A program made the position numbers and the translations under genes. A stretch of DNA of 64,000 nt, from the NCBI GenBank assembly GCA_051294905.1, contig CM119371.1:1552001-1616000 (forward strand), in the 5' to 3' direction. Positions 17,411 through 48,500 of this stretch are shown here, in pieces; position 1 is the first letter of the stretch, and each line of letters starts with the position of its first letter. Source of the DNA: Botryllus schlosseri. Its lineage: Eukaryota. Under the pieces are notes generated by a model. The model worked only from the letters and a program-made list of their open reading frames with translations. It made no database searches and was not told the DNA's origin.

Positions 17411-17632
17411 GTATCCATGGCTTCCCTGCTTGGCGCTCATGCATTACTGGGATAGCATGGAGGGGTGGTGCATGACTTAGAAAGTCGTAAAGGCTATATC
17501 TGCACTTCCTTGTCCAGCGGCATATGCACATCATGCACTCATGGAATGCATATGCGCAGATCGTGTGTATGTATATCATGAGTCGGTGTATATGCCGCAA
17601 AAAACATCAAGGACAAAAATAAACTACGTCCT

Positions 17633-22576: not shown

Positions 22577-23263
22577 TCAATACCTATATATATACCTACA
22601 ACTACAACCCACAATTTCCCTGCAATTCTAATTGAAAACTCCAAGCCAAGCAAGAGTATTTTATGAATATAATTTTTTTTTATAAATCGATTTTTCAATA
22701 TTTTTGTGAGGGCCGCAAGAAGGCTAGCTGAGGGCCGCGGTTGGGAATCACTGGTTTACACCGTATCCTATACAACTTCTCCGTATTGCTCTTCGACTAA
22801 ACTACGGGCATTATAATATGGGGGATGACGCCATACCATGCTATTTTCCAAAACGTATTGTTCGAGAAAACAGAGGATTAGTATCGCATTTCCTTGCCAA
22901 TACTATCATTTTCATCCCATGATGTGGACGAATGCTTATGCTATCGAAAATTGGATACCTGCTGGTATGCATCAATATCAATCAAGCTCGTCACCTATCA
23001 CATAGCTCAATTTGCCCCTTTTTATAATCCATCCAATCAGGATCGTTTTCACAACTACTTACTTACTTGAGTACTTCTAGAGTCAGTCAATTCTACTTCT
23101 ACTTCAAGTAGTTTTAGGTTGCTCATGAAAGAAGTACTTCTACTTGTACTTGAGTAGATTTTTTCGTCGCTACTTCTACTTCTACTTGAGTAGCTTTCTT
23201 GACTACTTTGACCACCTCTGCAATGCAAAAACCCTTAGTGAAGACTACTAATGTTCGTGGCAG

Positions 23264-23621
23264 TGTTGGGATTTGAGAATTTTATTAACAAAATTCCCCT
23301 AAAAGATCAGCGACTTGCACACGGATAAATCAAGAGTCAAGACGAGAAATTATTCCAACACCTCACACCGTGAGGGATTAAATACGATGCCGTCTCAGCT
23401 CGCAATAGTCTTCGGAACGTGTCAATTCGGCGCGTCGTTCAATAAAGGTAACCGTCGTACACAGCGATCAAAAACGAACTGGCTTACAAAGCACAAACTC
23501 ACATACTGACACCTTAGCCACGCACTAGGTAATTAACTTAGTGAAAAAACAATTAAGCAATCAAGTCGGTTGGAAGCTCTTCGGCTTGCGTATCGCACGA
23601 CCACTTGACGTTAGCTTTACA
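23264..23621 (-). mobile_element. Solo-LTR-like repeat
   Basis: TG...CA ends (minus strand starts TGTAAAGC), AATAAA near the 3' end, and a diverged second copy at 57485-57804. TSD imperfect (GCAG/ACAG). Confidence 0.55.
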
Positions 23622-26520
23622 ACAGGGATTAAGTCACTGCCTTCGAATCACAAGTCATCTCGAATCATTGCACATTTTAACTTGAGTCAAGTCAATTCAC
23701 TTGATTTTCATAGGCGACAAGGGTCAAGTCAAGTCACTCGATTTCTGGAGGTGACACGAGTCAAGTTAAGTTGAAATTTCAAAGTACTATAGACATGATT
23801 TAAATTCATTACTAGGGCGATTTTTTTACACTTCAAAATAATTCAATTTTTTTTTTACATAACGAGTTTAATTTATTTAGCTGTTCTTGTGTAAATCACA
23901 CTAACATGTAACTTAGTTACTCCCGCCATTTACCAGCTTCAAAAATCTAGTGTTTCTCGGCTGTAAATCGTTTTGTGTTCACAATAGAGAAAACTTTCTT
24001 CTTAAGACTGATAGAAACTTGATGTTTAGGCAGCTTTCATGACCCTACGACTAGTGGTTGTCGAGATGGGCAATTTCACCCTCCCCCCTCGCGCAGACAT
24101 TGGGGTGATGCCGGCTGGAAAATGGAGGCAAAATTTTTAGGCAAATTCAAAATTTTCAAACTCTACGAAATCCGCGAATATCGGTTGGAATGAATTCAAA
24201 TTTGGTGTGCGTCATTTTTTAAGGCAACCTAACGATTTAATCAAGTAACCGGCAAGATTCAGGAAAAATTGTTATTTTTGAACAGCCCTAATGCAGATAC
24301 TCATTAGGAGACATTTAACAATACTCTTGAGTTATAATGAGTTGTGGATATTTTTAGCATAATTGCAAATTAGTCGCAATCACATATCAATAATAAACGA
24401 GGTCATGAAGAGAAATGAGCCAATTATATTCTGCTCGAAGCATTTAGAAAAACCAAGGTAGCAGAAAACTTGGTCATTGCCCAGCAAACACATAATTGCC
24501 TAGGGCTATCCAAGCAGTGTCCGAGTGTCCCAGTGTCCGGTTGGACAGACGTGGGCTAATACTTGGCTATCCACGTTCGAAAATGTCCGGTTCGGATATC
24601 CTAGGACATACATACAGAAAAACATTTCGGATAGTCCACTAAAAGTCCCAATTCAATTTTCAATGGATATCATAATCTGACAGTGTGCGGATATCTCCAT
24701 GTTGTATCTATGCTAAAAAGTCAACCACTCAAGTTCTTGCTGATAAGGGCACATATTTCATCCTTTCAAAATATTTCAAGAGTACAGTTCGAAAGAAAAT
24801 CGCACATTTACACACCGATATTCGGGATAGTCCACTGAAAGTGCGAATCAGAATTCCAACGGATATCATATTCGGACAGTGTGAGGATAGCTCCATTTTG
24901 TTGCAGCTCTAAAGTCAATCTCTCATTAACTCCCGACGCTGATATGCACAAATTGCACATATTTCAGTATTTCAAAATATTTCAAGAGAATTTGAAGGAA
25001 AATCGTCACTGGACATGATTTTTCATAGCGACGTCACGTAACCGGATTATGCATATGCTGGCATTGAACGGTCAATATTTACTGTCGGGCCAACATTTCA
25101 AGCCATTTCTGTGCCCTTTTAGCTGTCGTGTTACTGTTTGTTCCTGCGGTGAACATTCGCAATTCCGAAAGATGTTATGAACTTTTCGCGTGCATCATGC
25201 CGTGAGATGTTTAGCGTTTTTCACTTGAATTCGCTCAATGGGTCGCCAGAAATGGCGACTGCGCACAGTGAATCTGACTTGATCGCCATATAATTGACAA
25301 GGATTATATGCTGGTATATTGAATAGTTAATGGCATACCCTATTATCGACTTCGATAATGGTACATTCGCTTTCGTACTTTTATTTCGAGCATGTAATAA
25401 ACTTTACAAATTTATACCGCATAATGTTTTACCTTTACCGATATTACCCCGCTGAATACCACTCAACGATTGACGAGCTTTCCTCGTACGTCGCGTGGCG
25501 CCATGCGTGAAGTGAATGAGATCATTAGCCTTTTTCATCTATATGCGCAGTGGCGCATTGCGCAGCGAGCCCTGTTCACGAGATTCAAATTTTCGTCTGG
25601 GAAGTTTGAACCGTGATTCTGTGAAGTGAATTGCTGTCAGCGGCGAGAATCATTTTCGACATTTGCTGTGTGTCACTTAGCTCGGTGATTACTTAACCAT
25701 AACCACTGGTTGTAGCAGTGTAGTCAGTCAATGATACGGTTATAGTCAGAAGTGGCGTATGTGCTCAACGAAAATGCGCTTGGTTATTGAATCCCTATAG
25801 TAAAGAGCTATGACGGATCTTCGGCAGGCCTATTATTTTTTAGAGTTGATACTGTTATAGTACGTCCTTTTATTGTAACCTAACCTGATTTCTTGATCAA
25901 CATAAGGTAAAAGTTACTGTTTTGTGATTTATGACTGGAAATGGATTCGAAAGTAAGGATTTGACTGACCGCAAGCTATCATAATTTTTGAATTAGACCC
26001 GTAACTCAAATTGAGTGATAGACATACCTACTCAAGAGTCTTGGTTGCTGGTATTTCAATCATGATATTAATGCTTGGCTTCCAAATTGTATTATTGAAG
26101 TACCGATATTCAATTCTACCCAGCCCTATATATGGTCACCGTATGAGTACTATATTGCAATACTAACTTGGAAAGCTCAGCATCGGATGCGGGGAAAAGA
26201 CGACGGATAGGAAGATCTACCATATATGATTCCGATTCAAGGTCTGATTCGGGTGGTCACGAGAAGATTCAAAGAAATCGCACATGTTCCACTGATACCA
26301 GTGATACGGATCTCGCTGAAGCTCAGACGAAACATTTCGAAAAGAAATCTCAGCATCTTGAAGAAAAGTGAAAAAAGAAATATGCCAGTAATGTCACGAT
26401 TTTACTGACAGTGCATCACCAATTCACCAAATGCAGGTTAGGCCTTAATTCCTCTATGTGGCATCAAAACAGCAAGAAATCTGCAGTTATGACCGTTTGA
26501 TCTGTAAAAAGATTATTAAC

Positions 26521-26726
26521 CCAAATAGCTGGTTCGTGGTACAGAAATTGAATATAGCTTTCAATACAACATCCATTGTAACAGAATTGCGTCACACTTT
26601 GCCTTTTTGGTTTTGCTTTTAAATCTGTTTAAATCCCTTTAGTGTGCCGTTAACTCTTGAAAAAAGGCACCCGAAAAGTCGTAGAGTTTAATAGATATTC
26701 TGTTACAATGGATGTTGTATTGAAAG
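26521..26726. mobile_element. ~205-bp short element with a ~30-bp internal inverted repeat
   Basis: CTTTCAATACAACATCCATTGTAACAGAAT / ATTCTGTTACAATGGATGTTGTATTGAAAG, flanked by repeated ATTATTAAC; inverted second copy at 60522-60754. Confidence 0.7.
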
Positions 26727-26873
26727 ATTATTAACTCTCAAGTATAGTCTAGAAAGCTGAGTATATAGAGTAAAACTGAGTATGTAAGTTATGAATTATT
26801 TGAAATTTTTATGCACATGCAATGATGACTGTAGATTGTAGAAACTTCCAATTTGATAACTCAACGGTAATGT

Positions 26874-28130
26874 TAGAGCTGGCGACCAGAACGCGCAATT
26901 TAATTACGCAGGTCTCAATCAATCGAAAGCTACTTTCGCACTGATTCCGAAAAGAGAAATTAAAATCTAGTCCGGGCACTGAAAACCCCGGAAATCGCCC
27001 TCAAAGTGCCAATGTCGGTATTGTTTCAATCAATGGTAACGCCGGTAGACAATGACCGTTCAATGTCTCGTACTGATTGTGACATCATTGAGCGCCTCGG
27101 CGAAGTCGTGCCGTGATTCTCAGAGTATAACGCGTCGTATCAATCACCGTAACGCGAATCAGTCGTAATGTGAATAGTTTATGTATTTTGCGTCGTCGCG
27201 CATTCAAAAATTTGGATAAATACAAATTATAGCACAGAAGCCTACACATATATTGTAGAATTTACTATCAACGCGTATTTCTTAGTACGCAACAGGCCGA
27301 TCTACGAAACACTTTGTTCCATTCGGCACAGCGGTTCATGAATTTCATTGTAATATATATTCGGCGTTGCAATCACGCATCTGGAATTGAATTGGGCTGA
27401 TTCCGTGCATCCATGTCACACTGACAGGTGTCGGGACGCCGTTTAGGACTTCGCTAAATGAATTTTGATACAGCTGTAGGCTACTGTTGTATTGTGATGT
27501 ACGAAATGTTTTGTTAATCAACCTGTTACTCGTAGAGCAGATCTGGAGTATTATCATTTATATTTGTTGATATTTGAAAATGTGCGACGGCGCGAAACGC
27601 GATAAGTACTCGTAGCATTAGGAAGTATTCACGTTACAGCAATTGATGCGGCGCAAAGTGCTACGACTGATTGTAACGACGAAAATATATTCCAATGAAA
27701 TTCATGAACCGCTGTGCCGAATGGAACAAACTGTTTCGCGTACGCGTTGATAGTAAATTCTACGATGATATGTGTAGGCTTCTGTGCCATAATTTGTGTT
27801 AATCCAAATTTTTGAATGTGCGACGACGCAAAATACACAAACTATTCACATTACGACTTATTCGCGTTATGGCGATTGATACGGCGCGCTATACTCTGAG
27901 AATCACAGGGAACACGGCATGACTTCGCCGAGGCGCTCAATGATGTCACAATCAGTTCGAGACATTTGATTTGTTATTGTCTACTGGCGCTACCTTTGTT
28001 GGAAACAATGCCGATTTCCGACTTTGAAGGCAGTTTTCGGGGGGTTTAAGTGCCCGGACTAGATTAGTGTGAAAGTAACTTTTTATTGAGACCTGTTTTA
28101 TTAAATTTTGCGCTCTGTTTGCCAGCTATA
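26874..28130. mobile_element. Foldback/MITE with ~500-bp imperfect inverted arms
   Basis: TA(G/T)AGCTGGC ends; 26874-~27390 is the diverged reverse complement of ~27665-28130 (e.g. TGTGACATCATTGAGCGCCTCGGCGAAGTC vs GACTTCGCCGAGGCGCTCAATGATGTCACA). Confidence 0.8.
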
Positions 28131-29319: not shown

Positions 29320-30409
29320 CAGAGGTCTCAAACTCAAATGTGCTCGCGGGCCAATTTTCCAGTTTTTACGCCGCCGCGGGCCGCAGCATTTATAGGGGTA
29401 TTCTATGTCTTTCGAAGTAGGCCTTATTTGGCGGGAATGAATTGTCCTATTGAAAGTGAGCCGATCCAGCAGAGTGACAGTAAACACACATCGTCAAAAT
29501 GTGATTTACTCTTGTATCAACTTAGGCCTGACACGAAAAGAATCATCACAATTATACCTATTTGAATAGAATTGATATATATTAATCATAATATATAGAC
29601 ACCATGTGGGTGGACAAAAAGCTATCGGGTTATAATTTTGGAGCTACTATGGATATTTTTAATTTAACAGATTGATAATAGAGACTTATCTGATATCAAA
29701 ACATTTTAGGTTGAGCATGAGCATTGTAATTCCAATCCAGGATTCGGGTATACGTTTGATAAGTAGGCTATTAATCTCATGGCCAAATATCTTCAAATAT
29801 AGGAGCAGAAAAAAATATAAATATAACATAAATATATTAATGAATGTGTCCTAGTGACTGAAATGTCGGAACGCCGAACGCCCCATTGTTGTTACATCGT
29901 TGGAGCGTACCACTACGGTACTCGATACCTTTAAGTGGCCTTAATAACATGGTTTAGCGACCAAAAATGTATAACTAACAGATTGCCAATGGTTGCCATA
30001 CCTACTTGCTTAGTTAGCGAAATACCAAGCTGCGACCTTTTGATCTATTACTGTTCCCCTGATACGCGATTAGTTTGTTGCGTCCATGGTTCTAACAAAT
30101 GCACGGCATTCCGAGTCCACTTGAGTCATTTTCATTTTGCCACCGAGGGGTCAGGTTTTGTCATCATGAATTCGAAATGTGACGAAATAGTGAGTTTTCC
30201 ACTGCATGGTAGCGTTTGCTTTTGATTTGATAGTGAAGTTTGATGAATAGTTTCAGGCTTTCGGAGCAATTTAATAAGGAATTTTCACTTTATAACTTGA
30301 AAAGATATATGTGACACTTATATATTGTCAAATGATTTTGATTAAAAATCTAAAATGTCGTCGCGGGCCGCTCAAAATGCTATGGCGGGCCGCGTGTTTG
30401 AGACCTCTG
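29320..30409. mobile_element. Non-autonomous hAT (Charlie-like) element
   Basis: TIRs CAGAGGTCTCAAAC / GTTTGAGACCTCTG; perfect 8-bp TSD GTCTACTG (29312-29319, 30410-30417); GCGGGCCGC motifs. Confidence 0.92.
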
Positions 30410-31289
30410 GTCTACTGAATAAGGCTTGCTGGGCGTTCAGAATTGGTAGCATTTTAAAGGATTGTTTCATGTTTGCATGTAATGATTTTCTTGCTAATTA
30501 ATTTTTAGGACAAGAATGCAGAACAAGTCCATATCCTGTCTCAGCCTTGCCCAGACGATGACGAGGAAGAGGATGCTGTATAAAGTCATTTCCATCATGC
30601 CAACTTTTGGCCTCATTGCAAGTTAAACCTGTATGAAAGATTGAAGATATTTCCAGCTAAAGAAATTGTTGCTTGCAAGTGTGCATTGCTTGTTGTGGAA
30701 ATTTTTACAAGTTAAGGTTGAATCTGCTGATTATTATTTTCATCCGCTCAGGACACGGTATATACAATCAAAAAGGGGTGAAAGTGAGTCATCCTTGCTG
30801 CTCAAGTAAAGGTGGATCTGAATCTGACTACTTGAGTACTTTCCAAAAACAGAAAAAGTCGCACACTTGCAGGTTACTGCAGTTGGTAGGGGCCGCTTTA
30901 AAAATTGAGGGATATGCCACCGCGAAAAATATAATGGCACTCAACTATAGTGCGATTACTAAATTGCATTCACTATCGCTACATTATAGGGGCTATCTAA
31001 CTGGTTATGTCTCAAAAACCTAAGTAGAAGTAGTCACAAAAACATGCAACAAAAGTAGGCAAAATCTAAGTAGAAGTGCTTTGTTTGTTATACTGCACCT
31101 TGCACAATGCGTGACAGATCTGCACATAGAGGATGTCGGAACGGCCAATTGACCATAGTAAAACATCCTATTTTTTGTATCTCTATTCGTATTACCTCTC
31201 CACCTTCAATATTTGTCATCTTAAATGTCAACGTCAACTAGTGTGCATGTAAGTAGTATAGTCGATCGCTCGCATGCGGCCATGGGGTT

Positions 31290-31730
31290 CTTATGGGCGG
31301 GGTGGCGATTCGCCTGGAAACCCGGGGTGGCGATTCGCCTTTTTAGACCCCCCTCTGGGCCGCGATTCGCCATGTGTTCTTATGGGTGCGGTCGTGATTC
31401 GCCTTTTCGGGTATAGGCTGCGGCGGTGAGGTGTCTGAAAACCCGGGGTGGTGACTCGCCTTTTTTGCTATAGGCCGCGGTCGTGATTCGCCGTGAAAAC
31501 TCGTGGTCGTGACTCGTTTTTTTTGCTATAGGTGGTGGCGGTGATTCGCCATGTGTTCTTATGGGTGCGGTCGTGATTCGCACTTTCAGGCATCTCTCGC
31601 ACGTCGTACTTTCGCGTGTAGGCTGTGGCGGTGATTCGCCTGTCGTGTATTCTTACGGGATCTGTGGTGATTCGCCATGTGTTCTTATGGATGCGGTCGT
31701 GATTCGCACTTTCAGGCATCTCTCGCGCGG
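31290..31730. repeat. GC/CpG-rich subterminal array of GTGATTCGCC-like motifs (mirror at 45060-45500)
   Basis: More than ten G(T/C)GA(T/C)TCGC motifs; higher-order repeat ATGTGTTCTTATGG at 31372, 31551 and 31677. Confidence 0.85.
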
Positions 31731-34700
31731 TGTTGAATATGTACGAGTCACCAACAATAACCGCACAAACGGAAACGTGGCTTGCAAGAGGATTAAGCAG
31801 TGCGTGCGACCAATATTTCGAATGACCCGCGCGCTGAATTGTTTCCGTGCAGTCGTGTGCTACTATCGATTATTACACTAGATCAGTCAGTGTGAAATAG
31901 TTTGCTAAATCTAGGAATCAGTCGCATGGTGTTACTTTAGTAATTAGTTTACCACAGAGCCGGCGTAGCCGGTGATTCGAATACCGACAAATTTTCACTT
32001 ATTTCTGACCCAACCCTAATCCTCTGTGAAGTTGACGCTTATTCAAAAAGGTGTGAAATAATTGTAAAATCCTAATCCGAAACCGATTATTTCGACTTTG
32101 GCGTAGTGCGCATTGAAATAGGATTGACAAACATGACTAGCAACTTCCCCCACAGTCCCGTTTCGATATTATACACACACTGATTTGAAACAAGTAATGT
32201 AACATTACAACTCTATTCCCGATCCAGCTTTCCGTTTGTCAAAGAGACATTTTAACATCTTACCATACTCAAAAGAATTACTCACAACATTACCAATTGT
32301 TAAAAATCTAGTTTTAGGTAATATTTCGGTAATTAGTTTACCATAGAACCGGCGTAGACGGTGATTCGAAAACCAACTATTTGACGCTTTCTGGTGCTTG
32401 CTATATGTTTTTACACTTCGAACGTGGTGGACTTTAGTTGCGTGATAAGAATATTCAACCAATGTGTCAATTTGTCAACTCGAAATGAAACTTACTACAC
32501 AGCTCAAGTTGATTCGTATCTGAATGTGTTAATTCGGTACAATTCTAATTATTTTGAGAAATCTTTTCGTGATCTTTTGATTCGACCGTAACCTGAATAT
32601 TACTGACGCCGACTTTCAGCCACATCGAATTATTCGCACATTCCACGACGCTGTTTTCACACTTATAGAATCAATACCAACTATAATTCTACAAGAATCA
32701 AGAATCACAAGTATGTGTATTATACAGTTATTGTCTTTCTCAACACGAAATCAAACTCTTAACAAAAACACGCATCTTATCACTCGTCAACTCTATCATG
32801 AAAAGCCTCGAGTCCTTATTATCAAAAATGTTATAGCGCGGTGTCGGAATCCATTCGCGGGATGTACTAAAGGTAAATCCAGATAATCCAAAATGAAATA
32901 TTTGGACTTTGACATAATCTGAATTGAAATATATTGACAAACATGACTACCAACTTTGATCCAGTCACATTTCAAGATCATACTTTGAAACAATCCTTGA
33001 AACTTACAACTCTATTCACGATCCTGCTTTCCGTTTGTCAAAGAGATATTTCAATATCGTACCATACTCAAAAGAATTATTCACAACATTAACAATTGTT
33101 AAAAATCTAGTTTCACTTACTTGATTATATCACTACAACTCATAAATTTGAAATAATTCATCCTGGTTGTACTCGTATGATCGGTCTTTTTTTTATTCGA
33201 TTGTAAAGGTCGTTACTATTCTGAAGACAAAGTATTTACTAATCGGTGCATATACGATTTGACTTGAACATATTATATTTTGAGTATACGAGATTTGAAT
33301 GTCTGAACAATAACTGACTAATAATTTATCACAATTAAATCCGTATATTACAGCGTAAAAGATATTTGAATGTCAGCAACTCGGTAAGGTCATAGTTACT
33401 ACCACATTACCTAATTTACCCGACCAACTCGTCATGATCATTCCTGAAATCAACACAAACATGACTACTGACTTGAGTTAACCACAAAACAGCATCAAGT
33501 TTTAAATCCACTTGTAGCTTACGGCTTATTTGAATGCGGGTTATGTTTTGTTGTAATTGAGTGTACGGAAATAGTATTACGTCTCGACATCTCACCATCT
33601 TACCATATTCAAAGAGTCAACCACGAAAACATTGTCAAGTAAATCCGTTTGTAACTTACCCGACCAACTCAAACAGTATCAGTATGAAAAACAGCCAAAC
33701 ATACACGAATCCATACAATCACTAAAACCTAAAATTCATAACAAGCTTGGTTGTATTCATATCCATACACATCTTTTTTTATTCAACTTGAAAAGTCGTT
33801 ACTATTCTGTAAGATAGAGGAATTACTACGCGGTATATTCTGCAAGACAAACTAATTACTACTCGGTATATTTTGTAAGACAAAAGTAATTACTTCTCAG
33901 TGTCGGCGACTTGAGATTAACATAATATGTTTGAGTATACGAGATTTGAAAGTCTGACCAACGTAGTTGAGAATTCATTTCTTACAATCGAACGATGGTG
34001 TTATATTCAAAGTTATCATGCTGTGAACATAAGGATTGACACATTGATTTGACATATGAGATTTTGTAATAGTTGATCATTACTTTATTATTAAATTATT
34101 TGCGTTAATTAGACCCGGCGTTGTGGTAAATGTTATGACAGCAACAAACTTTTCAGTACCAATGTTATTAACATATTAAGCTGTAAAACTATGTGTGTCT
34201 GAAATGTTCTTGATAGGAAAATTACTCCACCTTGGTAAAAATCACTCTGCGTATCGCGGATATCAGAAAATATTTCCAGTAACCAAGACTAAAGATGAAA
34301 CGACAATATCGGTATTATTACATTCAACAATCAGTACAATTATTAAAATCTATCGTTTGCGATAAACAGCACTAAAAATGTAATAATTCCAGTATTCATA
34401 CATTAAACCTCCGATACAAAATGCTTTATTATCCCGATTCCCAACGGGTAATTGAAACGACTAAGTGTAGAATCAGTATATCACAGTATCGTTACTATTG
34501 AATCCAACGATTTATTGTCGGAATTTGTGACAGAGAATTGAAACATATGCACTTTACAGAGTGTGAAAATATCACTTTGAGTATCGAGTACCGTTCGAAG
34601 CTAGCGATCAATTCTTAATCATTTCAGTAACTCACCATTGTGCGTGCTAAATGTAAAATATCGCGAGGTTATACACTCTAAGACTTAGATCATTACAAAA

Positions 34701-36619
34701 GTAAATTGTGATATGTTTGTTAGATGCATCCAATTCAGTTAGAAATGTCTGGTGCACAACAATCGTAATATCAAAAAAGTACTTGCTACACTGTTATTTG
34801 CTAAACGTGTTTTGCATTGTTGTTCATTTGTAGTATTGATTGAAATTGTTCTTGAACCCTCAAATAATAATTCCTGACATGAAACCAAGCCGCTGAAAGT
34901 CGCTACCATCACGAAGATACAATGTGTACGATGTTTGTCAAATGTGTCCTACCTGGCCAACAGAAAACAATTTTCACTCACTTGAAATGAAACCAATGTG
35001 ATGGTCTCCATTCGATATTTTGTTTGTGGCAAATACTTTGCAATGAACACATTTGCGTGGTTGAGCTTTACATCATCAAGCTGTTATTTGTAAATCAAGA
35101 TTTCGGTAAACTTGTAAATGTATCGTTTAACTAACCGACATTCAGTGATTGGGGAACATACCAGACGATACACATCCATCTCCGAAATACTGCGTTGATC
35201 TTAATTTCCATCGTCGTGATAATCGAAGTACATTTCTTTCGAATTCGTAACAACCGACTATGACATGATAAATTTTTGACAAGTTATGCTTAGAAGAATG
35301 GTTGCATATCGCGAAAAAAAAAATATACCACTCATATTGATACTATTACTCCATTGATCGATATTTTCAAACGAGTAAAATTTATTACTTGAGTTTCCCC
35401 GCTTAATGTAAATGAAAACTCAACCGTCTTTTAACATCACAAAGACATTGATAAAAAGTAGGCAATCAAACACAACACTTTGTACGACACTAATTATTGT
35501 TCCACACATCTCATTTCATACTAAGTGTATACGAAAGATATTTATGACACATGAAAATATTCCCATGCTACAAACCTGTACAATGATTGGTGGTGCTTTC
35601 AAACTGTTTCGATATCACAAGAACTTTATTGTCTGAATGGGTGTTCATGTATCTTAATAATCAAATAGTTCAACACAGAACTAGTACGAACAGAAACATC
35701 AGAGTTGTTTACACAAAAGTTTGTATGTGCACAGTATGCGAATACCATGTGTAAGTCCAGCACAATTGTGGTATCCATCCGATTTAGTTAACACAATTTA
35801 CGACACCGAGGTCGCCTCATCTTTCGTAAGACAACAAACCAAGGCTTCAGGATATGTCCATGTCATAGCAATAAATCAGCTACTCCAACAACAGAGTACA
35901 TATGTTTTCTAGTTACGGTGCTTACATCTTACACACAAATCAATCTGCTGTGCTAACGAAAAGTGCTGAGTCATCACATGGTTGTCCTCACAACAATACA
36001 ACTAAAACATACTATCATACAAAATGGCCGTTATAGTCACCAATGGTACATCGTACAAGTAACAAGTCTCGAGAATCCAGTTATTCAAAAAACGTGAAAG
36101 TATTTCTACACCAAGTCGTTATGTTGACGAAGACGTATATTGTAATATCATGATCGATTTGTATTCGTTGACCGCAAAATGTCACTACTCTAAATAATTA
36201 TTTTTCACTCAAACACAAAAACCTACTTGTCGCCATTGGTTTTCATCAAGCACGAGTTCAAGAAACTTACTTACTACGACATGAATTGTTATTTTATGTT
36301 GTGTAAATAGGTAATAATTAATTCAAGTAACACTATATCAACATCATCGAGCTGTGCGAATAGATTTACATGTGGTCTTGTGGTTTTAATCGAAGTACAC
36401 AGTACGGTCTAATGTAGAGTCATCTCTATTGTACAGCAACTCGGTAGTCGAAATGCATTAAAATTTAAACAGCGATCTTGTTTCATCACGCGAAAAATAT
36501 GTTCACTATCGCGATACTTTGCACAGGACGTGTAAATCCTTTTCACACTCGTAATAGTATACCAACGGCTACCGGCGACAACGTTTAACAACACCAACGA
36601 CACTAAACATACGATACCT

Positions 36620-37195
36620 ACCCAAGTAAAATTTCCATTTTCACCTGGAGGTCAGCCGTTACCTGAGTAAAAATACCATTATTCTTTGGAGATTTATCGT
36701 TTAATCAGAGTAACAAAACATTTTCACTTGGGGTTCCATCGTTTCCCAGAGTAACAAACCCCCCTTTCCTTTGGGAATCTATTTTTTTTTCCGTGGGTAA
36801 CAAATCTTTTTCACTTGGAAATATCTTTTTTCCTCGGGTAACAAACCTTTTTCGCTTGGAAACATATTTTTTTCCCTGGGGAGCAAACCTTTTTCACTTG
36901 AAAATATATTTTTTCCTCGGGTAACAAACCTTTTTCACTTGGAAATATATTTTTTCCTCGGGTAACAACCCATTTTCACTTGGAAATATATTTTTTCCCC
37001 GAGCAACAAGCCTTTTTCACTTGTGAATATATTTTTTTCCCCTGAACAACAAACCATTTTCACTTGGCGGTCCGTCGTTTACCTGAGTAAAAATATCATT
37101 TTCCTTTGGAGATCTGGCGTTTACCCAGTGTAACAACACATTTTCTCTTGGTCATCTAGCTTTTCCTAGAGTAACAAAACCATTTTCATTTTGAA
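36620..37195. repeat. ~41-bp minisatellite (mirror at 39600-40172)
   Basis: About 14 head-to-tail units of TTTTCACTTGGAAATATATTTTTTCCTCGGGTAACAAACC, most conserved in the centre. Confidence 0.9.
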
Positions 37196-38454
37196 ATCTG
37201 ACAAACACACCTGACAATTTGATATTTTTGTATATTGTTACAACGGATAGCGACAAAATATACACCAACAACAACTCCAATACATTTGTGTAATCGCATA
37301 TTCACTTGTGCTGATGCAACCCATCAAAATCATCGGTTACCCACATGCAATGTACTGTTGTACATCGACGTTTATGTTTTTGGAAAATTGGACAATAGGC
37401 TTCGATAGTTCTGTGATGTCCGGGTTCGTGCTTTGGATTTTCCAGAGTCAAAATGTCTGAATAAAACACCTCCTTGACGATGGTTGGTATGTGGATAACG
37501 GTGTTCGGAAAACGGTTGGATTTATGTCACCCATCGCGATAATAATTCCAGGTCGAGATTTCCCCCGCGTGTTTACTATATTGTGTCTTTATTGGTCATG
37601 TATGTCTCGACATTCAGTTTGAAATCGGAAACCCTGATAAAGTATGTAACCGGATCCGGATATCAACTCTGAATTGATAAACCAATGAACAATATTCAAA
37701 GTAAACATGTTACACCCTGTGTTTCCACGAAAAAATACCATCCAGATATACGTCGCGCTTGTTTGCCCACATCAGTATACGCGTAAATGGAGGTGTGTGA
37801 CATTGCATGCAATGTGTTGGTATACAAACATCGATCCACAGACATTATCATAGCCGGTAGTTTTGATGTAGATCGAATGTCATCACACCCGATAACAATG
37901 TCATACCAATAAGCCACATTGCAATGACTCTGAGTCCGCGCTATTACATCGATATTTCGGCACCGTTCACTGATTTACTCGATGGTGTTATCGTGTTGTA
38001 ACATTACAAGATAGTCATGGCCCTATCTCCGGACAGACCACCCAGATCAATTGGATACATCGGTCAATATCCATCGTGTTGTCGACACCGAAGTTTTCTG
38101 CTGAGACTGCAGCGTTTGACCAAGGTGAACTATCGAATCACGGGTGCTCGAAATGATTGCGATCAGTCTTTCACTAAATCACGATGCATGGATGTCACTA
38201 CTCCCACATAACGACTCGTGATAAATATCGTGAACAGTGATTCTGCAAATCTCGGACTGATACTGTGATCCAATAAGGTGTGTTTCTGTGGAATGAAGAC
38301 TGCAATCGTACACCACAATAGAACACTACCTCGCGATTTCACACGCAATCATAAAACACGTCATCGTAAGGGTCCAGTTCGTCCGGTGACATTTCGAAAC
38401 GGTCGTCGCCACAAGAGATCGGTATCATTTTGAAACGACATCGTCACAAGTCTA

Positions 38455-39078
38455 TTGACGTCGATTCTGTTGGTCATGTCAATCCCTTTCACAATCCACC
38501 GTTTTTCAACTCCCCGCACCATAGTGTTACGACACAGACAAGAAGCGTCGGTGGAAATAATAAAACACGGAAAGCACACTTTGGTGTTATTTGACATGGA
38601 TTTTACACCCGACGAACCTTACATTCGAGCGATGCATTGGAATGACGCTTGTATTATTGACGTAGAAGGAACAGAAATGTATCGATTTATTGGTTTCGTA
38701 CATATCCAACAAAAACCAGGGTATGTGATTGTGCGTGGTTCGCATATTCGACTGTGAACGCTCTATTGGTATATGCTGTATAGTTCACTTTCACCGTCGT
38801 GCGAATAACCCATGTTACGGTTCGATGTTTGTGTGTCTGTATGTCACGCTTCAGATTGACTCAGAGTCATTGCAATGTGGCTTATTGGTATGACATTGTT
38901 AACGGGTGTGATGACATTCGATCTACATCAAAACTACCGGCTATGATAATGTCTGTGGATCGATGTTTGTATACCAACACATTGCATGCAATGTCACACA
39001 CCTCCATTTACGCGTATACTGATGTGGGCAAACAAGCGCGACGTATATCTGGATGGTATTTTTTCGTGGAAACACAGG
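38455..39078 (+). pseudogene. Putative spliced cargo gene of unknown function crossing from the spacer into the right arm
   Basis: ORF 38455 ends ...QQKP GG|GTATGT (donor at 38721). Acceptor CTTCAG|A at 38854 completes GGA and continues in frame as LTQSHCNVAYWYDIV...WYFFVETQ. Confidence 0.45.
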
Positions 39079-42000
39079 GTGTAACATGTTTACTTTGAAT
39101 ATTGTTCATTGGTTTATCAATTCAGAGTTGATATCCGGATCCGGTTACATACTTTATCAGGGTTTCCGATTTCAAACTGAATGTCGAGACATACATGACC
39201 AATAAAGACACAATATAGTAAACACGCGGGGGAAATCTCGACCTGGAATTGTTATCGCGGTGGGTGACATAAATCCAACCGTTTTCCGAACACCGTTATC
39301 CACATACCAACCATCGTCAAGGAGGTGTTTTATTCAGACATTTTGACTCTGGAAAATCCAAAGCACGAACCCGGACATCACAGAACTATCGAAGCCTATT
39401 GTCCAATTTTCCAAAAACATAAACGTCGATGTACAACAGTACATTGCATGTGGGTAACCGATGATTCTGATGGGTTGCATCAGCACAAGTGAATATGCGA
39501 TTACACAAATGTATTGGAGTTGTTGTTGGTGTATATTTTGTCGCTATCCGTTGTAACAATATACAAAAATATCAAATTGTCAGGTGTGTTTGTCAGATTT
39601 CAAAATGAAAATGGTTTTGTTACTCTAGGAAAAGCTAGATGACCAAGAGAAAATGTGTTGTTACACTGGGTAAACGCCAGATCTCCAAAGGAAAATGATA
39701 TTTTTACTCAGGTAAACGACGGACCGCCAAGTGAAAATGGTTTGCTGTTCAGGGGAAAAAAAATATATTCACAAGTGAAAAAGGCTTGTTGCTCGAGGAA
39801 AAAATATATTTCCAAGTGAAAATGGGTTGTTACCCGAGGAAAAAATATATTTCCAAGTGAAAAAGGTTTGTTACCCGAGGAAAAAATATATTTTCAAGTG
39901 AAAAAGGTTTGCTCCCCAGGGAAAAAAATATGTTTCCAAGCGAAAAAGGTTTGTTACCCGAGGAAAAAAGATATTTCCAAGTGAAAAAGATTTGTTACCC
40001 ACGGAAAAAAAAATAGATTCCCAAAGGAAAGGGGGGTTTGTTACTCTGGGAAACGATGGAACCCCAAGTGAAAATGTTTTGTTACTCTGATTAAACGATA
40101 AATCTCCAAAGAATAATGGTATTTTTACTCAGGTAACGGCTGACCTCCAGGTGAAAATGGAAATTTTACTTGGGTAGGTATCGTATGTTTAGTGTCGTTG
40201 GTGTTGTTAAACGTTGTCGCCGGTAGCCGTTGGTATACTATTACGAGTGTGAAAAGGATTTACACGTCCTGTGCAAAGTATCGCGATAGTGAACATATTT
40301 TTCGCGTGATGAAACAAGATCGCTGTTTAAATTTTAATGCATTTCGACTACCGAGTTGCTGTACAATAGAGATGACTCTACATTAGACCGTACTGTGTAC
40401 TTCGATTAAAACCACAAGACCACATGTAAATCTATTCGCACAGCTCGATGATGTTGATATAGTGTTACTTGAACTAATTATTACCTATTTACACAACATA
40501 AAATAACAATTCATGTCGTAGTAAGTAAGTTTCTTGAACTCGTGCTTGATGAAAACCAATGGCGACAAGTAGGTTTTTGTGTTTGAGTGAAAAATAATTA
40601 TTTAGAGTAGTGACATTTTGCGGTCAACGAATACAAATCGATCATGATATTACAATATACGTCTTCGTCAACATAACGACTTGGTGTAGAAATACTTTCA
40701 CGTTTTTTGAATAACTGGATTCTCGAGACTTGTTACTTGTACGATGTACCATTGGTGACTATAACGGCCATTTTGTATGATAGTATGTTTTAGTTGTATT
40801 GTTGTGAGGACAACCATGTGATGACTCAGCACTTTTCGTTAGCAAAGCAGATTGATTTGTGTGTAAGATGTAAGCACCGTAACTAGAAAACATATGTACT
40901 CTGTTGTTGGAGTAGCTGATTTATTGCTATGACATGGACATATCCTGAAGCCTTGGTTTGTTGTCTTACGAAAGATGAGGCGACCTCGGTGTCGTAAATT
41001 GTGTTAACTAAATCGGATGGATACCACAATTGTGCTGGACTTACACATGGTATTCGCATACTGTGCACATACAAACTTTTGTGTAAACAACTCTGATGTT
41101 TCTGTTCGTACTAGTTCTGTGTTGAACTATTTGATTATTAAGATACATGAACACCCATTCAGACAATAAAGTTCTTGTGATATCGAAACAGTTTGAAAGC
41201 ACCACCAATCATTGTACAGGTTTGTAGCATGGGAATATTTTCATGTGTCATAAATATCTTTCGTATACACTTAGTATGAAATGAGATGTGTGGAACAATA
41301 ATTAGTGTCGTACAAAGTGTTGTGTTTGATTGCCTACTTTTTATCAATGTCTTTGTGATGTTAAAAGACGGTTGAGTTTTCATTTACATTAAGCGGGGAA
41401 ACTCAAGTAATAAATTTTACTCGTTTGAAAATATCGATCAATGGAGTAATAGTATCAATATGAGTGGTATATTTTTTTTTCGCGATATGCAACCATTCTT
41501 CTAAGCATAACTTGTCAAAAATTTATCATGTCATAGTCGGTTGTTACGAATTCGAAAGAAATGTACTTCGATTATCACGACGATGGAAATTAAGATCAAC
41601 GCAGTATTTCGGAGATGGATGTGTATCGTCTGGTATGTTCCCCAATCACTGAATGTCGGTTAGTTAAACGATACATTTACAAGTTTACCGAAATCTTGAT
41701 TTACAAATAACAGCTTGATGATGTAAAGCTCAACCACGCAAATGTGTTCATTGCAAAGTATTTGCCACAAACAAAATATCGAATGGAGACCATCACATTG
41801 GTTTCATTTCAAGTGAGTGAAAATTGTTTTCTGTTGGCCAGGTAGGACACATTTGACAAACATCGTACACATTGTATCTTCGTGATGGTAGCGACTTTCA
41901 GCGGCTTGGTTTCATGTCAGGAATTATTATTTGAGGGTTCAAGAACAATTTCAATCAATACTACAAATGAACAACAATGCAAAACACGTTTAGCAAATAA

Positions 42001-45000
42001 CAGTGTAGCAAGTACTTTTTTGATATTACGATTGTTGTGCACCAGACATTTCTAACTGAATTGGATGCATCTAACAAACATATCACAATTTACTTTTGTA
42101 ATGATCTAAGTCTTAGAGTGTATAACCTCGCGATATTTTACATTTAGCACGCACAATGGTGAGTTACTGAAATGATTAAGAATTGATCGCTAGCTTCGAA
42201 CGGTACTCGATACTCAAAGTGATATTTTCACACTCTGTAAAGTGCATATGTTTCAATTCTCTGTCACAAATTCCGACAATAAATCGTTGGATTCAATAGT
42301 AACGATACTGTGATATACTGATTCTACACTTAGTCGTTTCAATTACCCGTTGGGAATCGGGATAATAAAGCATTTTGTATCGGAGGTTTAATGTATGAAT
42401 ACTGGAATTATTACATTTTTAGTGCTGTTTATCGCAAACGATAGATTTTAATAATTGTACTGATTGTTGAATGTAATAATACCGATATTGTCGTTTCATC
42501 TTTAGTCTTGGTTACTGGAAATATTTTCTGATATCCGCGATACGCAGAGTGATTTTTACCAAGGTGGAGTAATTTTCCTATCAAGAACATTTCAGACACA
42601 CATAGTTTTACAGCTTAATATGTTAATAACATTGGTACTGAAAAGTTTGTTGCTGTCATAACATTTACCACAACGCCGGGTCTAATTAACGCAAATAATT
42701 TAATAATAAAGTAATGATCAACTATTACAAAATCTCATATGTCAAATCAATGTGTCAATCCTTATGTTCACAGCATGATAACTTTGAATATAACACCATC
42801 GTTCGATTGTAAGAAATGAATTCTCAACTACGTTGGTCAGACTTTCAAATCTCGTATACTCAAACATATTATGTTAATCTCAAGTCGCCGACACTGAGAA
42901 GTAATTACTTTTGTCTTACAAAATATACCGAGTAGTAATTAGTTTGTCTTGCAGAATATACCGCGTAGTAATTCCTCTATCTTACAGAATAGTGACGACT
43001 TTTCAAGTTGAATAAAAAAAGATGTGTATGGATATGAATACAACCAAGCTTGTTATGAATTTTAGGTTTTAGTGATTGTATGGATTCGTGTATGTTTGGC
43101 TGTTTTTCATACTGATACTGTTTGAGTTGGTCGGGTAAGTTACAAACGGATTTACTTGACAATGTTTTCGTGGTTGACTCTTTGAATATGGTAAGATGGT
43201 GAGATGTCGAGACGTAATACTATTTCCGTACACTCAATTACAACAAAACATAACCCGCATTCAAATAAGCCGTAAGCTACAAGTGGATTTAAAACTTGAT
43301 GCTGTTTTGTGGTTAACTCAAGTCAGTAGTCATGTTTGTGTTGATTTCAGGAATGATCATGACGAGTTGGTCGGGTAAATTAGGTAATGTGGTAGTAACT
43401 ATGACCTTACCGAGTTGCTGACATTCAAATATCTTTTACGCTGTAATATACGGATTTAATTGTGATAAATTATTAGTCAGTTATTGTTCAGACATTCAAA
43501 TCTCGTATACTCAAAATATAATATGTTCAAGTCAAATCGTATATGCACCGATTAGTAAATACTTTGTCTTCAGAATAGTAACGACCTTTACAATCGAATA
43601 AAAAAAAGACCGATCATACGAGTACAACCAGGATGAATTATTTCAAATTTATGAGTTGTAGTGATATAATCAAGTAAGTGAAACTAGATTTTTAACAATT
43701 GTTAATGTTGTGAATAATTCTTTTGAGTATGGTACGATATTGAAATATCTCTTTGACAAACGGAAAGCAGGATCGTGAATAGAGTTGTAAGTTTCAAGGA
43801 TTGTTTCAAAGTATGATCTTGGAATGTGACTGGATCAAAGTTGGTAGTCATGTTTGTCAATATATTTCAATTCAGATTATGTCAAAGTCCAAATATTTCA
43901 TTTTGGATTATCTGGATTTACCTTTAGTACATCCCGCGAATGGATTCCGACACCGCGCTATAACATTTTTGATAATAAGGACTCGAGGCTTTTCATGATA
44001 GAGTTGACGAGTGATAAGATGCGTGTTTTTGTTAAGAGTTTGATTTCGTGTTGAGAAAGACAATAACTGTATAATACACATACTTGTGATTCTTGATTCT
44101 TGTAGAATTATAGTTGGTATTGATTCTATAAGTGTGAAAACAGCGTCGTGGAATGTGCGAATAATTCGATGTGGCTGAAAGTCGGCGTCAGTAATATTCA
44201 GGTTACGGTCGAATCAAAAGATCACGAAAAGATTTCTCAAAATAATTAGAATTGTACCGAATTAACACATTCAGATACGAATCAACTTGAGCTGTGTAGT
44301 AAGTTTCATTTCGAGTTGACAAATTGACACATTGGTTGAATATTCTTATCACGCAACTAAAGTCCACCACGTTCGAAGTGTAAAAACATATAGCAAGCAC
44401 CAGAAAGCGTCAAATAGTTGGTTTTCGAATCACCGTCTACGCCGGTTCTATGGTAAACTAATTACCGAAATATTACCTAAAACTAGATTTTTAACAATTG
44501 GTAATGTTGTGAGTAATTCTTTTGAGTATGGTAAGATGTTAAAATGTCTCTTTGACAAACGGAAAGCTGGATCGGGAATAGAGTTGTAATGTTACATTAC
44601 TTGTTTCAAATCAGTGTGTGTATAATATCGAAACGGGACTGTGGGGGAAGTTGCTAGTCATGTTTGTCAATCCTATTTCAATGCGCACTACGCCAAAGTC
44701 GAAATAATCGGTTTCGGATTAGGATTTTACAATTATTTCACACCTTTTTGAATAAGCGTCAACTTCACAGAGGATTAGGGTTGGGTCAGAAATAAGTGAA
44801 AATTTGTCGGTATTCGAATCACCGGCTACGCCGGCTCTGTGGTAAACTAATTACTAAAGTAACACCATGCGACTGATTCCTAGATTTAGCAAACTATTTC
44901 ACACTGACTGATCTAGTGTAATAATCGATAGTAGCACACGACTGCACGGAAACAATTCCGCACGCAGGTCATTCGAAATATAGGTCGCACTGCTTAATCC

Positions 45001-45538
45001 TCTTGCAAGCCACGTTTCCGTTTGTGCGGTTATTGTTGGTGACTCGTACATATTCAACACCGCGCGAGAGATGCCTGAAAGTGCGAATCACGACCGCATC
45101 CATAAGAACACATGGCGAATCACCACAGATCCCGTAAGAATACACGACAGGCGAATCACCGCCACAGCCTATACGCGAAAGTACGACGTGCGAGAGATGC
45201 CTGAAAGTGCGAATCACGACCGCACCCATAAGAACACATGGCGAATCACCGCCACCACCTATAGCAAAAAAGACGAGTCACGACCACGAGTTTTCACGGC
45301 GAATCACGACCGCGGCCTATAGCAAAAAAGGCGAGTCACCACCCCGGGTTTTCAGACACCTCACCGCCGCAGCCTATACCCGAAAAGGCGAATCACGACC
45401 GCACCCATAAGAACACATGGCGAATCGCGGCCCAGAGGGGGGTCTAAAAAGGCGAATCGCCACCCCGGGTTTCCAGGCGAATTGCCACCCCGCCCATAAG
45501 AGCCCCATGGCCGCATGCGAGCGATCGACTATACTACT
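38858..45538 (-). repeat. Right arm of the giant inverted repeat (6681 bp)
   Basis: Begins GACTCAGAGTCATTGC, the reverse complement of GCAATGACTCTGAGTC ending at 37936. The length difference is explained by a 4-bp indel plus two compensating 1-bp homopolymer indels. Confidence 0.95.
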
Positions 45539-48500
45539 CATGTATTTTTACTGTCATTGAAGAACTTCAACCTGCCACTTTTCGAATTTTTGTTACCGTC
45601 CCATTTCAATGGTATTATCATATTGTGAACGTACTTTTTCAACTTGATTTGACGGTTGTTGCTTTGAATCAATGCTGTGCTTTTTTCTACTTCACTGCAA
45701 TTTGTGATGTAGGCCTATCGCTATGTCTTGTTGCATGATTATTTTCAAAACTTGCCAACCTCTGTATTTCTGATACATTTGTGTATGTGTAATGCGGTGC
45801 ATGTCTTGTTTTCATATTCTCATTAGCAGAATTCTGGGTAATTGCTTCGACCTATCTTCATTTTTGAACACTTGCCCATGTGTCGTATTCTGTAATCCTC
45901 CCAGTGTGCATGCTTCTTCACCTTGATTGTTTGACAGTTGTTGCTTTGACTTTTTGCTGTGCTTTTGCTGCAATTTGTACTATTGCCTATAATGATTTTC
46001 AAAACTTGCCAACCTCTGGTGTTTCTGATATCGTTGTGTATGTGTAATGCGGTGCGTGTCTTGTTTTTATTCTCATTGACGAAATTGAAGGTAATTGCTT
46101 TGAACTTTATTTTTATTTTTCAACACTAGCCCATGTGTGGTATTCTTCCCAGTGTACATACTTCGTTAGTCGTCTTATTCTTAGCCCAATATTCTTAGCC
46201 CAATTGATTAACTGATCCAACGACTGCTTGTGATATTTTTGAGTACACCTGCTGCTTTATTGTATCTCTTCAACTTGAGTGAGTGATTGATTTTGACGTG
46301 ATTTACGGCCGTTGTTAATTTTACTCGTTGCTGCTTAGTTTTTATTGCTGACAATTTGATAATATAAGCTTTTTGCCTGAAAATTAATCTTGTTTAAGTG
46401 TATTTGTGCGTCGCCTAACCTGTGGTAAGGAAATATGCAGGTCCAGGAGCTAGCTAGTATTCAGAGGGTTGATCAGTGGATAGTCTATGGATATCGGTCC
46501 CAACCGGACTTTGTCCCTACAGTGGCCAGGAAGTGACTCAGAAATGACTTGATGGATGGTCAGTGGTCACCCACTGGATACCACCAGGAGTCGACACGCT
46601 CGGTGCAACCGGATAGCGGTAGGATGACTCTGTGCCAAATGACAAGTTATCCGACGGGTATCCGCTTGCCGTAATGTGTTTGCTGGGTGGTCATAGAAGC
46701 AAGAAAAATCGTTGGCTCGAAGTACAGCGACCGTCATTCTACAGTATAATATCAAGGTCATGAAATATCTTGGTAATGAAAGTTTTAAACTCGGTAAGTA
46801 GGCCATACCTTTCAACACTTTACTGAAGTCAACTGTACTAAAGATAACATAACATAACATAACATTGTTGGGTTATTATTTTTATCTGAACAAGTCACAC
46901 ACAATGTACAATGCGATAAGACACAATGCGATGTCATGAACAGATAGGAGGATATCGTACGACACGCATCAGTAGAGAATAGAGAAAGATCACTAGATCA
47001 TGATGGAATATGGAGAATCCTACATAATTGACATCACAATGAATTTCATATACTACACTACATTCATTTTCAACAAAATTTTCAATTTTATATTTTTTGG
47101 GTTTTTTTGAAACATTTAATTTCTATCATAATCCATCACACAAAACGTAAAGACAGCACAAAGTACACACTGCACAGTGCACAGTGCACATCTAAGAATA
47201 TAACAATTTTTTTCATTTTTCCATATTTATGATTTTTATGTAATTTTTATTATAATCAATTATTTTAGAGGTGTAAGACGATGGTATATGTTTATTTTAT
47301 CCCGCGGGTCGATCCCAACTTGCGAGTAAATCCTTATAATAGCAAAAAATTCAACAGGATGACGGCTTGGACTCTACTGTAGTCAAACAGCCTTCGCATT
47401 CAAATCCATTCAACCCTCAGTAATTTGTGCCGTAAAATATTCCTCTTCGAAAATATATAGGTTCGACCTGACATTTATTGCATTTCCATTGTTTTCGTCG
47501 ATTTGTGAAGCTTTATGCAACTGTTTTGGTTACTTAATTGTAAAATGCATATTAGAAATAGTTTCGTGAAATTGCATCGATTGAACATGAAATAGTCAGT
47601 TTGAATTCTAAAACGAATAGTAGTAATTCTGCTCTGCACGTCTCAATTTTGTTGATGACGATTGGCTCTTGTACACGAGTAACAATGTTGCATCTACTGC
47701 CTTTTCAGAAACTCCCTGAAAAACAAATATCTCTGAATAAATCACTATCCCAGTTAATCAATTACGTCAGCAAACTATTCGAACTATAAGCAGAAAATTA
47801 ACTGTTCACACGGGTATGTCATAACAATGCACAAAATAGAATTCGACTTGCTGTAGAGTACCTGGGATCAGAGTCGGATAAATCGTAGGGATTGAATCTA
47901 CAGGACGATTCGGCATTTAAATTTTCGCGAGACGATTCTCACGTATCGTCGGCACACAATCCAATACACGGTAACATATTTAGTCGGTACACGAATTTCA
48001 TGAAAATAAACCTGCAGACAACACATCGTATCGCGGGAGCGGTATTGGCTGTGACGGTGTACTTGCTAGAGGACTTTGTTAACATTTCGATGAGAGAAAT
48101 TGCGGTGCTGTTAACAATATCGAGTATCAATGACACTCGAAAAGTAGCTATCGGCTTGTTTTATGGAAAGCCTAAAATATTAGTGACGATAAGCGTACTT
48201 CTGCCAGAATTGGATAATTAGATAATTCTAGTTGTCTAATTAGACTAATTAGAGCAAATGCCGGTAATATAACTTGAATCTATTTTGTGAAATGATTCTC
48301 TGCACTAATTCTAATCAAATTGGTAAATAATTTATATTTTCTCATTTTAATTCAAACCCTATCTCTGGTTTTCCTGTGAATGCTACTGAGAGAATTATGT
48401 AGTGCGAAACGAGCCAAGCTTTTTGGACAGACATTTGCTATTATCATGTTGATTTGATAGTAACGGAACTGGATTCAATGACCTAGTTTTTTGCGGACTC

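Follow-up and report, generated by a model that had tools for sequence, protein, structure and literature searches.

The window analyzed here is a 64,000-nucleotide (nt) stretch of contig CM119371.1 from Botryllus schlosseri, and at 31252-45538 it contains a gene-less palindromic element of 14,287 bp, 93.6% of which consists of two inverted arms. An earlier note on this DNA had described a near-perfect palindrome of 14.3 kb with arms of about 6.68 kb around a 921-bp spacer. Full alignment of the left arm with the reverse complement of the right arm confirms this, the two being 99.64% identical with 18 mismatches and 3 indels (6 nt), i.e. 24 differing alignment positions. In the window self-comparison the arms appear as four collinear blocks with complementarity of 99-100%. 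An inverted repeat of 6.7 kb at such identity cannot be a product of chance. The termini read AGTAGTATAG...CTATACTACT, i.e. AGTAGT...ACTACT, and are bracketed by the target site duplication (TSD) CATGTA; both had been claimed in the earlier note, and both are read from the letters at the two ends. The features to which the text refers are as follows, TIR standing for terminal inverted repeat.

31246..31251, strandless: left copy of the TSD CATGTA, letters read, identical to 45539-45544
31252..45538: gene-less palindromic element, 14,287 bp
31252..37936, + strand: left arm of the palindrome, 6,685 bp, from self-comparison and full alignment
31252..31904, + strand: terminal region homologous to a Maverick TIR, beginning with the (AGT)2 end-motif AGTAGTATAGTCGATCG
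31303..31730, + strand: subterminal short-repeat array (...GGYGRTGATTCGCC... units at a spacing of 26-58 bp), from repeat detection
36780..37187, + strand: tandem arrays of 41/42-bp units in the inner arm, with a mirror copy at 39594-40015
37927..37946, + strand: left arm/core junction of 20 nt, ACTCTGAGTC followed by CGCGCTATTA
37937..38857, + strand: asymmetric core (the palindrome loop), 921 bp, conserved family-wide
38434..38757, + strand: open frame of 107 codons in the core, probably not coding
38858..45538, - strand: right arm of the palindrome, 6,681 bp, its end reading ...CTATACTACT
44890..45538, - strand: right-hand copy of the Maverick-TIR-homologous terminal region, from its sequence match to the Maverick TIR
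45539..45544, strandless: right copy of the TSD CATGTA, letters read

The longest stop-to-stop frames in the element, one of 133 amino acids (aa) at 31468-31869 on the minus strand and one of 122 aa, both lie within the terminal region that is rich in GC. The ceiling of about 106 aa given earlier was thus too low, although the point behind it stands, in that there is no gene-sized frame. The 107-codon frame of the core is intact in 9 of 10 copies, with 18 variable sites falling 7/7/4 by codon position; lacking a coding signature, it is probably not a gene. Genes for an rve integrase, capsid proteins, a packaging ATPase and an adenain-type protease were not found in the window copy, where no frame exceeds 133 aa and a tblastn search with Maverick proteins gave no matches, in agreement with the earlier statement that Polinton genes are absent. 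Integrase matches occur only in other, gene-bearing elements. An Rfam search of the window found nothing. The arms are mostly unique sequence, the tandem arrays (58-, 33- and 41/42-bp units) totaling about 0.7 kb per 6.7-kb arm. The subterminal array, which has a 58-bp period at 31390-31550, is a candidate binding or origin region.

The flanks had been called unique. On the left side, positions 30408-31319 have a low word depth in public runs, as that claim would have it, but 29800-30407 is itself repetitive, with a depth of about 16,000-28,000 versus about 1,000 nearer the insertion, indicating another repeat family just upstream. Elsewhere in the window, a 604-aa open frame at 17761-19575 (+ strand) matches no Pfam family, its nearest protein-atlas clusters being arthropod hypothetical proteins at a score of 0.96-0.97.

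Copies of the palindrome across the genome

The genome examined comprises 495 Mb in 219 contigs. It was searched on both strands for the 20-nt arm/core junction with at most 1 mismatch, alongside a control sequence, giving 224 forward and 184 reverse matches, 408 in all, with 0/0 for the control. The junction is near-identical at all 10 loci read, exact in 7 and different at 1-2 positions in 3. A junction unique to this locus, which the earlier note would have taken as a sign of rearrangement after insertion, is therefore not what is found. The palindrome is an inherited family architecture with a single conserved junction, formed neither at the window locus nor by a recent one-off event. A 17-nt terminal motif has 377 forward and 391 reverse matches (768 in total) as compared to 10 + 17 = 27 for its control, and the terminal 600 bp of the window element are found elsewhere as oppositely oriented pairs 7-30 kb apart.

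The first 100 listed terminal-motif matches include 37 adjacent +/- pairs, from which lengths and gene content were taken. These pairs have a median length of 14,114 bp, with 28 of them within 11.5-17 kb. The junction lies inside 10 of the 37 and is near the center (0.42-0.53 of the length) in 8 of those. The 921-bp core was followed separately: all 40 scored matches are at 92-100%, 33 of them spanning the full 1-921, and at 9 of 9 other loci arm sequence adjoins the core on at least one side. Both inner arms are there in 8 of the 9, the left arm being disrupted at locus L025. We considered the 921-bp spacer as an independent nested transposon and rejected this on account of the arm sequence beside it at all these loci. 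A separate foldback element consisting of an approximately 3-kb core was likewise rejected, the symmetry running further out in loci L022, L027, L028 and L030.

Perfect and mutually different 6-bp TSDs surround all 9 AGTAGT-ended elements read at both ends, 8 of them gene-less and 1 gene-bearing. Recurrence at other loci, which the earlier note had put forward as a condition for a mobile family, is thus established by the junction count and by these TSDs, which are the footprints of integration. The gene-less elements and their TSDs are:

Window copy: CATGTA
C1:1963401: CGCGGC
C2:30516271: CCAACT
C1:3275001: GGCATT
C1:19317205: TTCGTA
C2:29339776: TATAAA
C1:29831967: GTCGTA
C12:23553222: CGTGTG

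No frame longer than 157 aa occurs in the 7 copies with frames listed. Same-ended elements that are unusually long (20.8 and 28.3 kb) or short (3.3, 8.0 and 8.5 kb) were examined as autonomous partners and rejected, all being without open reading frames (ORFs). The two long ones are palindromes with an ORF-less insertion in one arm, and the 3.3-8.5-kb elements are deletion derivatives.

Two kinds of unusual arrangement were seen along the way. The 20-nt junction occurs three times at 53-bp spacing at C1:39975837-39975962 and again at C3:21830736-21830861, which suggests a local tandem triplication of a junction-spanning unit at both loci. A motif-bounded element of 20.0 kb at C2:3706474-3726514 has two same-orientation junctions at 0.32 and 0.65 of its length and may be a nested or dimer-like form.

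Gene-bearing Mavericks and the origin of the arms

Mavericks have as hallmarks an end-motif of (AGT)2//(ACT)2 or (AG)3//(CT)3, a 6-bp TSD and a constrained size of about 17 kb, and in vertebrates they have TIRs of 46-1,447 bp, according to passages of PMC8097293. The window element has the (AGT)2//(ACT)2 end-motif and the 6-bp TSD of an autonomous Maverick, but its inverted repeat, with 6,685/6,681 bp and 94% of the element, is out of the range of a Maverick TIR.

A six-frame genome search with the Pfam model PF03175 (DNA_pol_B_2) found no polymerase, which proved to be a false negative, and an rve search was dominated by retrotransposon-type frames. A weak match to the A32 ATPase (PF04665) led to a 19.4-kb Maverick at C11:4506703-4526063 with 359-bp TIRs, family-B polymerase-like ORFs, an A32-type ATPase (PF04665, 1e-9) and an integrase with rve and chromodomain. 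It belongs to another lineage, its ends are unrelated to those of the window family, and no TSD was found at its BLAST-defined TIR limits. Inside its TIRs, beside the capsid-side genes, a caspase domain (PF00656, E = 4e-13) is found in a frame of 257 aa, possibly a cargo gene. With the C11 polymerase as query there are at least 118 genome matches in several lineages, many in frames of about 1,300 aa, and the C11 integrase gives 150. The Maverick polymerases of this genome, which are of insect type, thus escape the PF03175 model in six-frame search, even with this many present.

The most abundant polymerase lineage has matches inside 3 of the 37 listed motif pairs (15,814, 15,830 and 16,185 bp), so that gene-less versus gene-bearing elements number 34 versus 3 among these pairs. 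The 16,185-bp element, at C2:33149836-33166020, is the gene-bearing Polinton with shared ends that the earlier note had proposed to look for. It has the TSD TAGGCT, TIRs of 793 bp at 98.75% identity and the same 17-nt terminal motif as the window copy, and it holds polymerase and integrase matches. Window positions 31252-31330 are 81% and 31682-31904 are 90% identical to its TIR (L057 36-113 and 453-672), and at the right end 44890-45108 match it at 91-92% and 45460-45538 at 79%. This TIR is internally repeated, analogous to the subterminal array of the window element. The end-motif, the TSD and this homology uphold the description of the ends as Polinton/Maverick. As a non-autonomous derivative should, the family has terminal homology to a gene-bearing Maverick and many independent insertions with the TSD length of the helper.

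The terminal genes of the C2 Maverick indicate which end the arms came from. An ORF of 188 aa starts 40 bp inside its left TIR, and the ORF next to the right TIR is another one. Neither Pfam nor PDB sequence searches give these terminal ORFs a name. The 188-aa ORF has 47% identity to one from the C11 Maverick, and its nearest atlas clusters are Preplasmiviricota proteins, 22-28% of them with the adenovirus-protease family PF00770, so we call it adenain-like as a lead. A tblastn search of five palindromic copies with Maverick proteins gave matches in 3 of the 5, and only to the 188-aa ORF and its C11 homolog. The copy at C1:1963401 has the C-terminal 81 codons at 91% aa identity in both arms, the one at C1:3275001 has 31-36 codons in both arms, and the one at C2:30516271 has 31 codons in one arm. 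In the window copy and in the copy at C12:23553222 tblastn finds no remnant of this ORF.

In the single gene-bearing element read at its ends, the 188-aa ORF is found beside just one of the two TIRs, and the symmetric part of the palindromic family runs past the TIR into it, which is the mark of one end having been duplicated in inverted orientation. By these matches both arms would descend from one Maverick end, that of the adenain-like side, a conclusion that the remnants establish in part. The halves are from the same end in two siblings, as in a copy-back genome, the remnant being undetectable in the window copy; there is one junction family-wide in place of the variable de novo junctions of such genomes. 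Of the earlier proposal that one Polinton end was copied back on itself, the one-end origin thus holds up, and we infer at most that it occurred by copy-back during protein-primed replication. Each unit would likewise have two origins, as was also proposed.

Concerted arms, hybrids and competing explanations

Subfamilies diverge by 6-11%, and a comparison of arms within and between copies is informative about the history of the palindrome. For the inner arm, the two arms of one copy are sisters in 9 of 9 copies, and for the outer segment (35400-36000) in 5 of 5, with 99.2-100% identity within a copy versus 89-94% between subfamilies. Since the left arms of different copies do not group together, the palindrome was not formed once and then left without further re-symmetrization. 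In several subfamilies the likeness to the window copy stops at the 41/42-bp arrays of the inner arm. Beyond about 36.9 kb some carry arm sequence that is unlike that of the window yet symmetric at 98.8-99.9%, and such foreign arm modules are symmetric in 4 of 6 loci tested (L022, L027, L028 and L030), and of the other two one has a disrupted arm and one is partial. This is the pattern of a palindrome that has been repeatedly re-symmetrized, as judged from the sequences; the process behind it is a matter for the mechanisms considered below.

Two copies have unlike arms. The left arm of C12:23553222-23568425 is 98.6-99.5% identical to the C1:1963401 subfamily, and its right arm is nearest to other subfamilies (94-97%). 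The switch point is near the shared core, and the ends are intact with the TSD CGTGTG. In C2:30516271-30530313, which has the TSD CCAACT, a left-arm segment that forms 99% symmetric inverted pairs at many loci is single. That these two copies are merely old was rejected, the arm affinities showing hybrids. The matching TSD at both ends means that the hybrid existed before integration, and the hybrids fit recombination or template switching between co-replicating molecules. There is no sign that a hybrid has multiplied, matches to the C2:30516271 segment being absent from listed motif pairs of similar length, although no further test was aimed at this. Neither concerted evolution of the arms across subfamilies nor hybrids had been anticipated in the earlier note.

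The core and inner arms (37322-39472) of siblings are closer to the window copy (91-97%) than are the outer arms of the same siblings (77-95%). Subfamilies exchanging sequence at the core would fit this, as would a cis-acting function of the core.

We think it probable that the window element is one copy of a non-autonomous, gene-less family of Maverick satellites, moved in trans and repeatedly re-symmetrized. In this proposal, the founding event would have been the inverted duplication of the adenain-side end of a Maverick, with the one founding junction now common to about 400 copies. The (AGT)2 ends and about 650 bp of TIR-homologous sequence would have been kept, with the inverted repeat grown to arms of about 6.7 kb around the 921-bp core. 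Same-ended, gene-bearing Mavericks presumably supply in trans the polymerase and integrase with which copies are replicated and integrated, the shared ends and TSD pointing to Maverick enzymes as the agent. Re-symmetrization would most likely take place while a linear extrachromosomal form replicates by strand displacement, through either strand switching or self-primed fold-back synthesis, and such a replication-linked copy-back mechanism is what we infer from the arm pattern. Hybrids would arise by recombination or template switching before integration, joining the arms of two subfamilies at the shared core. Gene-less lengths are roughly 12.7-15.4 kb versus 15.8-16.2 kb for gene-bearing elements, a size clustering compatible with a packaging or replication size constraint.

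Several observations weigh against this proposal or limit its reach. The core and about 5.5 kb of each arm resemble none of the Maverick sequences compared, so that for most of the palindrome no Maverick origin is detectable. The window ends match the Maverick TIR in two blocks only, with 31331-31681 not aligning. For C2:33149836-33166020, 5.3 of 16.2 kb were read, its polymerase and integrase coming from coordinate-level matches only. Among the 37 listed motif pairs, 24 hold neither a Maverick gene match nor an exact junction. Four of these were inspected, and three prove to be inverted-end derivatives, either palindromic or deleted, the fourth, the 3.3-kb element at C1:19317205, having only a 369-bp terminal inverted repeat. 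Of the 52 junction matches on C1 and C2, 41 fall outside listed motif pairs. The limits of the family and its pairing with helpers are accordingly provisional, and the core may also occur together with different end variants. Common descent alone may account for the length clustering, and the concerted arms could come from chromosomal gene conversion, no extrachromosomal form having been observed. The public data (3 DNA contig sets, and one RNA run with 83 mostly partial reads) give no evidence bearing on either insertion polymorphism or transcription.

The alternative to be taken most seriously accepts the same Maverick-derived family but gives replication no part, with the arms kept alike by chromosomal arm-to-arm gene conversion as in other large palindromes and the hybrids produced by ectopic conversion. 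Closely spaced inverted repeats are substrates for intramolecular conversion, the sister-arm pattern is predicted equally well by it, and it does without the extrachromosomal form. It has more difficulty with one-arm insertions that persist (2.4 kb at C1:1963401 and 15.5 kb at C1:3275001) in copies whose arms are otherwise 99.6-100% alike, and with arm modules of several kb that are symmetric in dispersed subfamilies. Ectopic replacement of an arm of about 6 kb with the TSD kept is possible but demanding. On balance we regard chromosomal conversion as a minority possibility, though a substantial one. A role for the family in the host would be an addition to its origin and not a replacement: if palindromes were transcribed, a transcript through the 6.7-kb repeat would form double-stranded RNA over the TIR and in some copies over the gene remnant, making these copies hairpin-RNA sources for small-RNA silencing of Mavericks, with some retained by the host. 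We saw no evidence of transcription, and selfish spread of no benefit to the host would fit the copy number and the distinct TSDs, which leaves this role improbable.

Much less can be said for an independent foldback-type DNA transposon with its own unseen transposase and with ends that are Maverick-like by convergence. The long inverted arms, some internal tandem arrays and the lack of Maverick genes in the window copy are what it would have; convergence would also have to explain why 220 bp match the TIR of a gene-bearing Maverick with the same 17-nt motif at 90-92% and the terminal 80 bp or so at 81%, why a Maverick gene remnant at 91% aa identity is present in sibling arms, and why TSD length and end-motif are those of Mavericks, with the transposase nowhere among frames of up to 157 aa in 7 copies. 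These observations contradict it, and we consider it very improbable. Least credible of all is an artifact of the locus, either a misassembled hairpin or the rearrangement of an ordinary element after insertion. The public DNA contigs (3 sets) are short unitigs ending at repeat borders, and none spans the element, which leaves room for such an error. Against it, the 408 junctions, the central position (0.42-0.53) in 8 of 10 junction-bearing listed pairs and a TSD of its own for each element are not explained, and the 24 differing arm positions of the window copy are unlike a collapsed artifact. Misassembly as the source of the window structure is very unlikely because the same architecture occurs at many loci, each with its own TSD.

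Relation to known systems and meaning

The autonomous Mavericks of the same genome, such as C2:33149836-33166020, share with the window family the end-motif, the 6-bp TSD, homologous terminal sequence and a similar length. They differ in having the polymerase, integrase, ATPase and capsid genes that the window family is without, and in the extent of the inverted repeat, which is 6.7 kb here as compared to 793 bp in that Maverick and to the vertebrate range given in passages of PMC8097293. An intermediate case is provided by butterfly polintons, described in bioRxiv 10.1101/2025.02.07.637071 as having TIRs of about 2 kb that contain hexon and adenain. There too the TIR has grown inward over the adenain side, and one end is present twice in inverted orientation, but all genes are kept and the elements are autonomous, whereas in the window family the repeat is 94% of the element and no gene survives. 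The butterfly polintons give the appearance of the same process at an earlier stage.

The likeness to foldback and MITE-like elements (a MITE being a miniature inverted-repeat transposable element) is in the lack of coding capacity, with enzymes supplied in trans, and for foldback elements in the long inverted arms. The window family differs in being near genome length and not miniaturized, and in its Maverick-type ends and TSD. In Drosophila, foldback (FB) elements make TSDs of 9 bp. Tandem subrepeats, which make up much of the arms in FB-like elements, account here for only about 0.7 kb of each 6.7-kb arm.

For the mechanism, the nearest precedents are in protein-primed replicons. Daniell is reported to have described, in 1976, defective genomes from incomplete adenovirus particles in which one genome end is duplicated in inverted orientation. 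These would be helper-dependent molecules of a protein-primed linear replicon, with one end duplicated inverted as here; they arise repeatedly in infections, unlike the one founding junction in about 400 chromosomal copies. We do not know of defective adenovirus genomes as integrated, vertically inherited families. A second precedent is the chimeras formed during strand displacement by phi29 polymerase, over 85% of which are inverted and intramolecular, displaced 3' ends re-priming in the same molecule, as stated in PMC1855051. Those chimeras are the work of a phage enzyme in vitro, and the Maverick polymerases may behave in the same way in vivo.

The literature searched, supplements excluded, yielded no account of Maverick derivatives that are gene-less and almost entirely palindromic. 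A definition of Polintons by polymerase plus integrase likely makes annotation miss or misclassify such elements. By our estimate, about 400 copies of about 14 kb would be roughly 1% of the 495-Mb genome. Each copy is a perfect inverted repeat of several kb, and such structures are fragile and form double-stranded RNA if transcribed. The 34 versus 3 count among the listed motif pairs shows that gene-less elements parasitizing the machinery of a Maverick lineage can come to outnumber that lineage.

To our knowledge, the replication of Mavericks/Polintons has been deduced from gene content only, with no replication intermediate seen. The family described here supplies sequence footprints that bear on it, namely the inverted duplication of one end, re-symmetrized arms, hybrids at the core that predate integration and lengths just under that of the helper. 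A stronger form of the proposal is that these are true satellites of polintoviruses, linear and extrachromosomal, copied by the protein-primed polymerase of the helper, with the second arm regenerated from the first in most cycles by self-primed fold-back and near genome length maintained through packaging in helper capsids. We hold this stronger form to be rather doubtful at present. If it were true, the divergence between the arms would date insertions much like long terminal repeat (LTR) divergence does, and the family would be the first natural record of extrachromosomal Maverick replication and recombination, as well as of an endogenous DNA virus with a defective-interfering-like parasite.

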